From Escherichia coli (lineage in GTDB: Bacteria; Pseudomonadota; Gammaproteobacteria; Enterobacterales; Enterobacteriaceae), in NCBI RefSeq assembly GCF_016903815.1, contig NZ_CP069973.1: DNA of 64,000 nucleotides; one strand, given 5' to 3'. Of the stretch, positions 40,951 through 42,351 are shown one piece after another. The notes below the pieces were generated by a model. It was not told the DNA's origin. It was given only the letters and a program-made list of their open reading frames with translations, and searched no databases. A program made the position numbers and the translations under genes. The first letter of the stretch is position 1. Each line of letters opens with the position of its first letter.

Positions 40951-41095
40951 AGGCGGATAAGGCGTTCGTGCGCAGATGCCTGATGCGACGCTTGCGCGTC
41001 TTATCATGCCTACAATCGGTGCGGGTTTGGTAGGCTGGATCAGGCGTTCACGCCGCATCCGGCGTTCGTGCGCTGATGCCTGATGCGAATCCTGC
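40951..41095. repeat. REP/BIME cluster between efeB and phoH
   Basis: Several copies of GCCTGATGCGACGC / GCCGGATGCGGCGTGAACGCC-type palindromic units in alternating orientation. Confidence 0.75.
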
Positions 41096-41120
41096 TGAAA
41101 GCACACAGCTTTTTTCATCA

Positions 41121-41139
41121 CTGTCATCACTCTGTCATC
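41121..41139 (+). promoter_or_regulatory. Pho box (PhoB binding site) of phoH promoter
   Basis: CTGTCATCACTCTGTCATC: two CTGTCAT direct repeats with 4-bp spacer. Confidence 0.8.
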
Positions 41140-41562
41140 TTTCCAGTAGAAACTAATGTCACTGAAATGGTGTTTTGTAGTTAAATATAAGTGAATATAT
41201 TGTTGCAATGAATGCGAGATCTGTTGTACTTATTAAGTAGCAGCGGAAGTTCCCGGCAGTGATAGTCAGTCACTATGGAGATCGCGGATGGTAACGTCCT
41301 GTTCTGGACAATGTTTTGTTAAGCAAGGCTCCACCACTCGCGGAGATTTCTCCTCCGGTAGCAACTTCGTCACTCTGTATTTTTCTCACTTCCTCTCTTT
41401 ACTCGTGTTACCGACGCCGCAAACGGTGTGCGTAGCCGTTTTTCGGCATTTTATCCAAAAGCAAACTATGGCTTACAAGGAAGCCAACCCTCTGATGTTC
41501 GTGCGCATAATCGCGCTGCCAACGGCGCGTGTGATGAATACAAACAACTCAAGGTGCTCTCC

Positions 41563-42351
41563 ATGGGAAGACAAAAAGCAGTGATCAAAGCTCGTCGCGA
41601 GGCAAAACGTGTGCTGAGACGGGATTCGCGCAGCCATAAGCAGCGTGAAGAAGAATCGGTCACCTCGCTTGTGCAGATGAGCGGCGTAGAAGCCATTGGT
41701 ATGGCCCGCGACAGTCGCGATACCTCGCCCATCCTCGCGCGAAATGAAGCGCAATTGCACTATCTGAAGGCTATTGAGAGTAAGCAGCTGATATTCGCCA
41801 CGGGCGAAGCCGGGTGCGGAAAAACCTGGATCAGCGCAGCAAAAGCGGCAGAGGCCCTGATACATAAGGATGTCGACAGGATTATCGTCACCCGTCCAGT
41901 TCTGCAAGCCGATGAAGATCTTGGCTTCTTACCTGGAGATATCGCAGAAAAGTTTGCTCCCTATTTTCGTCCGGTCTACGACGTGCTGGTCCGGCGCTTA
42001 GGGGCTTCCTTTATGCAGTACTGCCTGCGACCGGAAATAGGGAAGGTGGAAATTGCGCCGTTCGCCTATATGCGTGGACGTACCTTTGAAAATGCAGTCG
42101 TCATTCTTGACGAGGCGCAGAATGTGACTGCCGCGCAAATGAAAATGTTTTTAACCCGCCTCGGGGAGAACGTGACGGTTATCGTCAACGGTGATATCAC
42201 GCAATGCGATTTGCCTCGCGGCGTGCGCTCCGGATTAAGTGACGCGCTGGAACGTTTCGAAGAAGATGAAATGGTCGGGATCGTCCGATTCGGTAAAGAG
42301 GATTGCGTACGTTCGGCACTTTGCCAACGTACGCTACATGCATACAGTTAA
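41563..42351 (+). CDS. phoH: PhoH ATPase core (P-loop NTPase); 5' extension appears out of frame in this sequence
   Basis: 262-aa ORF from ATG 41563 with Walker A GEAGCGKT; frame also open upstream to GTG 41428; separate upstream ORF 41288-41584 in another frame. Confidence 0.85.
   Translation: MGRQKAVIKARREAKRVLRRDSRSHKQREEESVTSLVQMSGVEAIGMARDSRDTSPILARNEAQLHYLKAIESKQLIFATGEAGCGKTWISAAKAAEALIHKDVDRIIVTRPVLQADEDLGFLPGDIAEKFAPYFRPVYDVLVRRLGASFMQYCLRPEIGKVEIAPFAYMRGRTFENAVVILDEAQNVTAAQMKMFLTRLGENVTVIVNGDITQCDLPRGVRSGLSDALERFEEDEMVGIVRFGKEDCVRSALCQRTLHAYS

Follow-up and report, generated by a model that had tools for sequence, protein, structure and literature searches.

Does the phoH locus of this strain of Escherichia coli hold a gene broken by a single nucleotide, or has the gene been drawn too long in the reference with which it is compared? 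The protein PhoH, whose function is unknown, belongs to the core of the Pho regulon, and phoH is a common marker gene for phage diversity. The window, that is, the whole stretch of 64,000 nucleotides (nt) analysed here (NCBI RefSeq assembly GCF_016903815.1, contig NZ_CP069973.1), contains the E. coli locus efeB–phoH–pgaD. The phoH gene of E. coli K-12 MG1655 (b1020) resembles that of the window in its locus, its pho box and the Shine–Dalgarno (SD) sequence and ATG of an upstream start. It differs in having one nucleotide more, so that in K-12 the upstream frame reads straight into PhoH, as a continuous 1065 nt encoding 354 amino acids (aa). In the window, the same ATG (41288) and the phoH stop (42351) delimit a span of 1064 nt, which lacks a continuous frame and holds two open reading frames (ORFs), with PhoH in the −1 frame relative to the first:

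41288–41584, + strand: leader ORF (an upstream ORF, uORF) of 98 codons, MVTSCSGQCFVKQG..., whose TGA at 41582–41584 ends it 22 nt inside phoH.
41563–42351, + strand: phoH proper, intact, 262 aa, MGRQKAVIKARREAKR..., matching NF007827, PF02562 and RefSeq WP_000533536.1.

A preliminary description of this DNA had taken the layout for a 1-nt indel, or a sequencing error, that splits a pho-regulated N-terminal extension from the ATPase domain. It had read the two ORFs, the span of 1064 nt and the upstream pho box correctly, as well as the start of the PhoH core with its Walker A motif (GEAGCGKT) at ATG 41563 and the opening of the PhoH frame 67 codons further upstream, to 41362. As the leader ORF is out of frame with PhoH, ordinary decoding from 41288 yields no 354-aa product, and only the 262-aa form, begun at the internal start, can be made, as had been proposed. 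The same description had allowed that K-12 might share the two-frame arrangement; K-12 is fused.

Based on a comparison of about 80 species, the interpretation of the split has to be revised. The comparison suggests that the first 92 residues of K-12 PhoH are a translated regulatory leader and not a part of the protein. What the window holds is probably the unfused form of a leader ORF that precedes phoH and is conserved and translated, and the 1-nt difference itself is an ordinary, harmless polymorphism. The PhoH protein proper is, in our best reading, the 262-aa core starting at ATG 41563 with its own conserved SD, and it is intact here. The ORF at 41563–42351 matches the NCBIfam PhoH equivalog NF007827 over model positions 1–253 of 253 with 512.3 bits (cut-off 380) and Pfam PF02562 with 258.7 bits, and it contains the P-loop nucleoside triphosphatase motifs Walker A (GEAGCGKT) and Walker B (VVILDEAQ; patterns GxxxxGKT and hhhhDE). 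The 253 positions of NF007827 span only residues 101–353 of the K-12 protein, and the 98-aa leader product has no match in Pfam or NCBIfam. In the records examined, the RefSeq call for PhoH is 262 aa (e.g. WP_000533536.1) in both allele classes, never a pseudogene and with nothing annotated over the leader. Among the RefSeq records compared, the 354-aa annotation occurs in the legacy MG1655 record only; UniProt PHOH_ECOLI is also 354 aa long. The core is 99% identical between K-12 and the window. The two differences are G in K-12 for S in VQM(S)GVEA and C for R in GV(R)SGL, and at one of these positions K-12 also departs from the consensus of other genera.

How the window came to differ from K-12 can be read from alignments of the leader. 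Divergence is confined to a block of ~130 nt (~41300–41430) with ~17% difference and identical flanks; over its final 130 nt the leader shows no difference. The block holds ~25 substitutions and a compensated indel pair (GQCFVKQ versus GHVLDNQ), which sits upstream of the net 1-nt deletion, and amounts to −1 nt overall. Two sites in it bear on the reading frames:

41384–41385, + strand: 1-nt deletion that unfuses the leader ORF relative to fused alleles, directly after the T5 run 41380–41384 (from alignments).
41420–41422, + strand: CAA codon of the leader ORF; K-12-type alleles read TAA here in the same frame (from alignments).

A net 1-nt deletion relative to K-12, as the preliminary description supposed, is therefore real; a strain-specific lesion splitting a functional N-terminal domain it is not, since the layout is widespread and arose through at least five independent indels. 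Nor does the deletion lie at either homopolymer named there. Those runs had been misplaced (T5 at 41441–41445 and A5 at 41571–41575, in fact 41439–41443 and 41573–41577), and the T5 run at 41380–41384 had gone unmentioned.

The deletion at 41384–41385 is common to the window, E. coli Nissle 1917, O104:H4, H2 and 504239, and Escherichia sp. E1V33, and the four E. coli strains, which were extracted, have the same 98-aa ORF as the window. At least 30 independent complete genomes, produced by different laboratories on different platforms, share a stretch of 1301 nt around the site at 100% identity. Of 5417 complete E. coli genomes, 523 match the window at 99% identity or more over the 153-nt variable block and a further 1431 do so at 95–99%, which places 1954 of the 5417 (~36%) in the allele class of the window (at least 95% over the block); all sampled matches in both identity bands span the 153 nt. 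Another 3411 of the 5417 are K-12-like, and their sampled members (317, KC-Dl-1 and VCSW7) are fused. The exact 98-aa product is present on at least 1000 contigs. The leader allele of the E69 type, which has a deletion in another T run, has no counterpart of at least 95% identity among the complete E. coli genomes. The split is thus a frequent, old natural allele and not an error or a private mutation, and the fused and unfused states are polymorphic within E. coli.

A protein search returns homologues of 353–356 aa in many genera, with the first ~90 residues barely conserved and the core ~95% identical. Because of the ascertainment bias of such a search, phoH loci were instead fetched from one genome per species (80 loci), and the 81 assessable sequences comprise 79 Enterobacteriaceae species, K-12 and the window. 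The ORF examined in each was the one starting at the homologous upstream ATG (MV.SCTG...), the start of which in the window is as follows:

41277–41290, + strand: leader SD GGAG (41277–41280) and ATG (41288–41290) with a 7-nt spacer; GGAGA and ATG are invariant in the 80–81 aligned sequences.

In all 81 loci the leader ORF is stop-free to at least position −26 from the phoH ATG. It is fused in frame with phoH in 54 loci, giving 352–369 aa. In 22 it stops at a TGA at +19 (19–21 nt inside phoH, a 22-nt overlap) after 97–98 aa; this class comprises the window, E. coli E69, E. albertii, E. whittamii, Escherichia sp. E1V33, most Citrobacter, Salmonella arizonae/diarizonae and one Enterobacter cloacae. 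The remaining five, Kluyvera and the Pseudescherichia vulneris group, stop at −26 after 84 aa, so that every one of the 27 unfused Enterobacteriaceae loci has its leader stop at +19 or −26. The other two frames contain 2–6 stops per locus. Over codons 2–55, the leader frame is stop-free in 81 of 81 loci, as against 9 of 81 and none of 81 for the other frames (149 and 281 stops), and the joint shuffle probability of this openness is ~1e-15 over 17 clusters of less than 75% identity, if the clusters are taken as independent.

Fusion, by comparison, evidently has been switched repeatedly by indels of 1–2 nt. Within Escherichia alone there are two different unfusing 1-nt deletions, one after the T5 run 41380–41384 (window and E1V33) and one in the T run 41439–41443 (E69, E. 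whittamii and E. albertii). The latter is also found in Citrobacter and Salmonella, and further independent unfusing events occurred in two other loci (L043 and L055), in Kluyvera and in the P. vulneris group; in total, the two-frame layout arose by at least five independent indels. In Yersiniaceae the leader ORF is unfused and has the same SD–ATG–GTAAAGTCC start, with stops at −24 (Yersinia ruckeri), −66 (Rahnella) and −180 (Serratia symbiotica); the longer start motif GGAG.TCGC.AATGGTAAAGTCC likewise occurs in Rahnella and Y. ruckeri. In these three loci (L091–L093) the neighbourhood of phoH is different, with a Na/Ca exchanger gene downstream, and the leader ORF start and the AAGGA hairpin described below are kept; the leader of S. 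symbiotica looks degraded. In several fused Enterobacter species (L011, L016–L018, L022, L028, L053 and L056), the region upstream of phoH is open over more than 100 codons in the PhoH frame and in the +1 frame alike. This double openness exceeds the expectation from composition and may reflect a history of frame switching.

The locus thus presents what is looked for in a uORF, namely a conserved SD and start, a frame open beyond chance without amino-acid conservation and a stop near or overlapping the downstream start. These patterns indicate that selection keeps the leader ORF stop-free up to the phoH start in every species examined, and leader translation itself is very likely the selected property.

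The sequence of the peptide appears to be unconstrained. In close species pairs, divergence at codon positions 1/2/3 is 0.011/0.003/0.101 in the PhoH core, 0.077/0.059/0.087 in leader codons 2–55 and 0.035/0.035/0.035 in leader codons 56–92, and the ratio of nonsynonymous to synonymous substitution rates (dN/dS) is ~0.7–1 for the extension against ~0.03–0.1 for the core. In unfused species, read in their own frame, the leader likewise shows no codon-position periodicity. The 5' half of the leader evidently evolves near-neutrally, and its 3' third is equally conserved at all codon positions. As the leader lacks codon-position periodicity, its amino-acid sequence does not seem to be under selection.

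The constraint points instead to the leader RNA. The consensus structure of the 81-sequence alignment has 96.8% of cells paired, compared with 30–47% in controls with slid partners, and 139 double-change cells, compared with 8–55; none of 500 shuffles reaches the observed values. The predicted elements, in order along the leader, are:

41296–41309, + strand: near-invariant hairpin GUCC/GGAC just 3' of the leader ATG (RNAalifold), pairs kept in 80–81 of 81 sequences.
41308–41430, + strand: C-rich, G-poor tract, rut-like (resembling a Rho utilization site) by composition, e.g. 20 C and 7 G in 41348–41407; it holds the fast-evolving block.
41338–41359, + strand: hairpin CG.CGGA/UCCG.G, pairs kept in 74–81 of 81, the outer pair changed from GC to AU in 14.
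41413–41450, + strand: covarying hairpin with helix 41413–41418/41445–41450 and inner helix 41425–41427/41435–41437.
41470–41485, + strand: hairpin GGCUU-ACAAGG-AAGCC, which presents AAGGA and is invariant across all 80 distinct sequences.
41506–41536, + strand: covarying hairpin with a CAU/AUG closing stem and a CGCGCU/GGCGCG stem; 3 pairs with changes on both sides, 97.7% of cells paired.
41550–41565, + strand: phoH ribosome-binding region, in which the SD AAGG (41551–41554) is predicted to pair with CCAUG, including the start codon.

Covariation is located in the hairpins 41413–41450 and 41506–41536, and all 6 pairs of the outer helix of the former have changed on both sides. The GUCC/GGAC hairpin hardly varies, which makes covariation uninformative for it, and the same is true of the nearly invariant helix between the phoH SD and CCAUG; CAAGGUGCU.UCCAUGGGAAGACA at this ribosome-binding region is conserved in all loci. 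The AAGGA loop is presented on different stems in Rahnella (GGUCU-AAAAGG-AGACC) and Y. ruckeri (GGCU-GCGAAGGA-AGCC). The few residues that appear conserved in the 5' half of the leader are explained by the two hairpins there, the 'RGG..SGS' residues by the one at 41338–41359. As for the C-rich tract, all of the 81 loci have more C than G in the windows between +40 and +140 relative to the leader ATG (37% C and 11% G on average), and this composition is kept though the sequence of the tract evolves near-neutrally. Rfam 15 has no match to the leader at E ≤ 1 between 41074 and 42152.

A Ribo-RET study describes a site of internal initiation, in frame within E. coli phoH, whose start is conserved and which is accompanied by raised conservation at synonymous sites; the authors did not settle whether the latter stems from an unrelated cis-element (bioRxiv 10.1101/520783). 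This synonymous-site signal is explained by the RNA structure described above. A paper on HilD and phoH in Salmonella contains nothing on start sites.

Other readings of the split have to be weighed against these results. If the 354-aa PhoH were a real pho-regulated protein whose N-terminal 92 residues act as a peptide, for example as a disordered tail, the window would carry a loss-of-function frameshift, and the retention of a fusion of 352–369 aa in 54 of 81 loci, together with the 354 aa in the K-12 annotation and in UniProt PHOH_ECOLI, would be accounted for. We consider this unlikely. In no lineage does the extension evolve like protein-coding sequence, as its lack of codon periodicity and its dN/dS indicate, and its conserved-looking residues fall in RNA hairpins; the preliminary description's notion of an N-terminal protein domain finds no support there. 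Fusion has been lost at least five times and is absent in 36% of E. coli, most Citrobacter, Salmonella arizonae/diarizonae and Yersiniaceae, and the upstream ORF stays open after unfusing, which is not predicted for a dispensable protein tail. As in split or frameshifted pseudogenes, one reference ORF appears as two ORFs in different frames. Unlike in such pseudogenes, however, the catalytic part is whole and subject to strong purifying selection, whereas the piece split off is without protein-level selection in any lineage, so that the break does not fall in protein-selected sequence. The unfused allele is, moreover, old and frequent, and with 26 other species sharing the two-frame layout the break is neither confined to one strain or clone nor an artefact. 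The artefact is the reading with practically nothing left to recommend it. A sequencing or assembly error at a homopolymer, with a true sequence one base longer and encoding 354 aa, would suit a deletion that adjoins the T5 run 41380–41384, but it would have to recur identically in the 30 or more independent complete genomes, in the 523 and 1954 genomes that are at least 99% and 95% identical over the block and on the contigs that carry the 98-aa product, and the allele also carries ~25 substitutions relative to K-12, including the linked TAA-to-CAA change.

The remaining alternatives concern how the leader is read by the ribosome. It could be an ordinary untranslated region (UTR) at the 5' end, with ATG 41288 unused and the open frame incidental to conservation of RNA structure, as would befit covarying hairpins, a peptide that is not under selection and a RefSeq annotation that shows nothing over the leader. 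This is decidedly improbable, as the frame is stop-free in all 81 loci even in the near-neutral 5' half, where the other frames have accumulated 149 and 281 stops, the SD GGAG with its 7-nt spacing and the ATG are invariant, and where fused species carry indels, these keep the frame intact across genera. Alternatively, programmed −1 frameshifting or transcriptional slippage might rejoin the 98-codon ORF with PhoH, so that the long form is still made. The geometry would allow it, with PhoH in the −1 frame of the leader ORF, both frames open over 41362–41584 and single-codon slip sites such as A_AAA(G) at 41457–41461. We nevertheless hold the chance of it to be very slight. No in-frame X_XXY_YYZ heptamer occurs in 41288–41584, on which ground a programmed −1 site of the dnaX or insertion-sequence type was rejected; the candidate slip sites are not conserved between species, and the candidate region is identical in fused K-12 and has thus not evolved for frameshifting. 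Efficient slippage by RNA polymerase would need longer runs than T5 and A5.

If the upstream frame is a translated leader, as we believe, the question becomes why it should be kept translated. Rho may be the reason, although we would offer this only tentatively; ribosomes crossing the leader would cover the rut-like C-rich tract and thereby prevent Rho termination ahead of phoH. Coupling or the opening of structure is put forward with equal reserve and is not exclusive with Rho; here, ribosomes crossing the leader would melt the structured domain and be delivered to the phoH start, in the unfused state by termination–reinitiation across the 22-nt ATG...TGA overlap. In such a model it would matter little whether leader and phoH are fused, which would explain the repeated switching.

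The proposed arrangement shares features with two kinds of known systems. tnaC–tnaA, mgtL–mgtA and toiL–topAI are leader-ORF-dependent attenuators acting through Rho, with leader ORFs of 8–24 codons that end well before the gene. Like these, the phoH leader has an ORF in a long 5' leader and a C-rich/G-poor stretch that ribosomes could cover, and by analogy translation and not (only) the peptide would matter. Its composition offers the rut-like C-rich/G-poor stretch (~60–100 nt) expected of a Rho-dependent attenuator. Unlike them, it is 84–133 codons long and reaches or fuses with the gene, and a dependence on Rho is suggested by its composition. The papers searched yielded no link between phoH and bicyclomycin or Rho. 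In translational coupling by termination–reinitiation scanning, stop and start usually overlap by 1–4 nt. phoH may be likened to such coupled genes in that, for all 27 unfused loci of Enterobacteriaceae, the upstream stop lies within ~25 nt of the start, and in that a paired state is predicted for the downstream SD; it differs from them in its 22-nt overlap and in that no termination takes place in the two thirds of species that are fused.

Taken further, and as a conjecture about which we remain doubtful in its entirety, the ~275-nt phoH leader would be an undescribed cis-regulatory unit of Enterobacterales, composed of a long translated ORF, a rut-like tract and a structured RNA with the covarying hairpins and the AAGGA hairpin (possibly a CsrA-type or SD-mimic site). 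This unit would gate PhoH through leader translation coupled to read-through and to opening of the ribosome-binding site; the 354-aa fusion would be a neutral by-product and the K-12 N-terminus would be leader. Together with the AAGGA hairpin at 41470–41485, a second GGA at phoH codons 2–3 (41565–41569, AUGGGAAGA) resembles a CsrA-type pair of GGA sites. The pga operon next to phoH is a well-known target of CsrA; a link between phoH and CsrA was not found in the papers searched.

The known promoters of phoH lie further upstream:

41122–41139, + strand: pho box (PhoB site) of promoter P1, TGTCATCACTCTGTCATC, identical to the phoH motif from PhoB chromatin immunoprecipitation sequencing (PMC10294691).
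41156–41209, + strand: binding region of phosphorylated ArcA (ArcA-P) overlapping promoter P2, homologue of the K-12 site ATGTCACTGAAATGG...TTGTTGCAAT.

PhoB binds the pho box and activates phoH (PMC10294691), and ArcA-P protects positions −80 to −21 relative to the P2 start (PMC3798270, supplement). From these data we infer a P2 transcription start at ~41230, 58 nt upstream of the leader ATG. Since both promoters lie upstream of that ATG, every transcript would carry the whole leader. A consensus promoter scan of 41000–41650 found no sigma-70-like site. In the efeB–phoH spacer there are two sub-threshold matches to naRNA4/CssrE, a repeat of the repetitive extragenic palindromic type, at 40952–41010 and 41033–41073 on the + strand (33.8 and 32.1 bits; gathering score 59.5). 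Positions 42153–42346 on the − strand, which lie antisense to the phoH 3' end, strongly match the Rfam family Ysr251, a Yersinia family of antisense small RNAs, with 192.8 bits (gathering score 100).

Several points speak against taking the upstream frame as a translated leader kept open to the phoH start. Kim and colleagues reportedly found in 1993 a PhoH of ~39 kDa in K-12; if so, the fused product is really made in K-12 and could have a role. The internal initiation site mapped by Ribo-RET we infer to be M93 of K-12 PhoH, and the main text of the preprint gives no coordinate (bioRxiv 10.1101/520783). The leader ORF of S. symbiotica ends 180 nt before phoH, so that openness up to the start is not an absolute rule, and the ending of the ORF beside the phoH start may in part simply follow from the last ~130 nt being conserved and stop-free in two frames. 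Further, one sampled E. coli, EEC_W5 (L090, NZ_CM130020.1), and only this one, has an early leader stop, after 44 aa; its leader is of the K-12 type with an additional 1-nt deletion in the CTCCTCCGG hairpin arm (homologue of ~41355), and the frame ends at the TAA homologous to 41420–41422. This may be a rare real variant or a (long-read) assembly error. Codons 2–55 show, in close pairs, a faint trend with position 2 lowest and position 3 highest, which leaves room for very weak peptide-level selection. Finally, single-sequence folding gives the leader RNA of the window no more stability than shuffled sequence (z = −0.63); single-sequence stability was therefore dropped as evidence and covariation used instead.

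Annotation of the locus varies between databases. GenBank AOM69374.1, BAX10449.1 and others name the 98-aa leader product 'PhoH family P-loop ATPase' or 'Protein PhoH', despite its having no ATPase domain, and some pipelines call a 307-aa form with a GTG start (41428–42351). The 354-aa K-12 reference entry is the form that gets propagated. On the reading of the upstream frame as a translated leader, the split does not warrant a pseudogene flag, and ATPase is the wrong name for the 98-aa fragment.

For the organism, the same reading implies that this strain would make no 39-kDa long form, a normal 262-aa PhoH and a 98-aa by-product peptide; a third of E. coli strains, Salmonella arizonae/diarizonae and most Citrobacter would be unable to make the long form as well. 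A long, translated, structured and C-rich leader conserved across Enterobacterales and annotated in K-12 as protein appears to be undescribed, and it would indicate a layer of post-transcriptional control interposed between the PhoH start and the promoters that PhoB and ArcA regulate.

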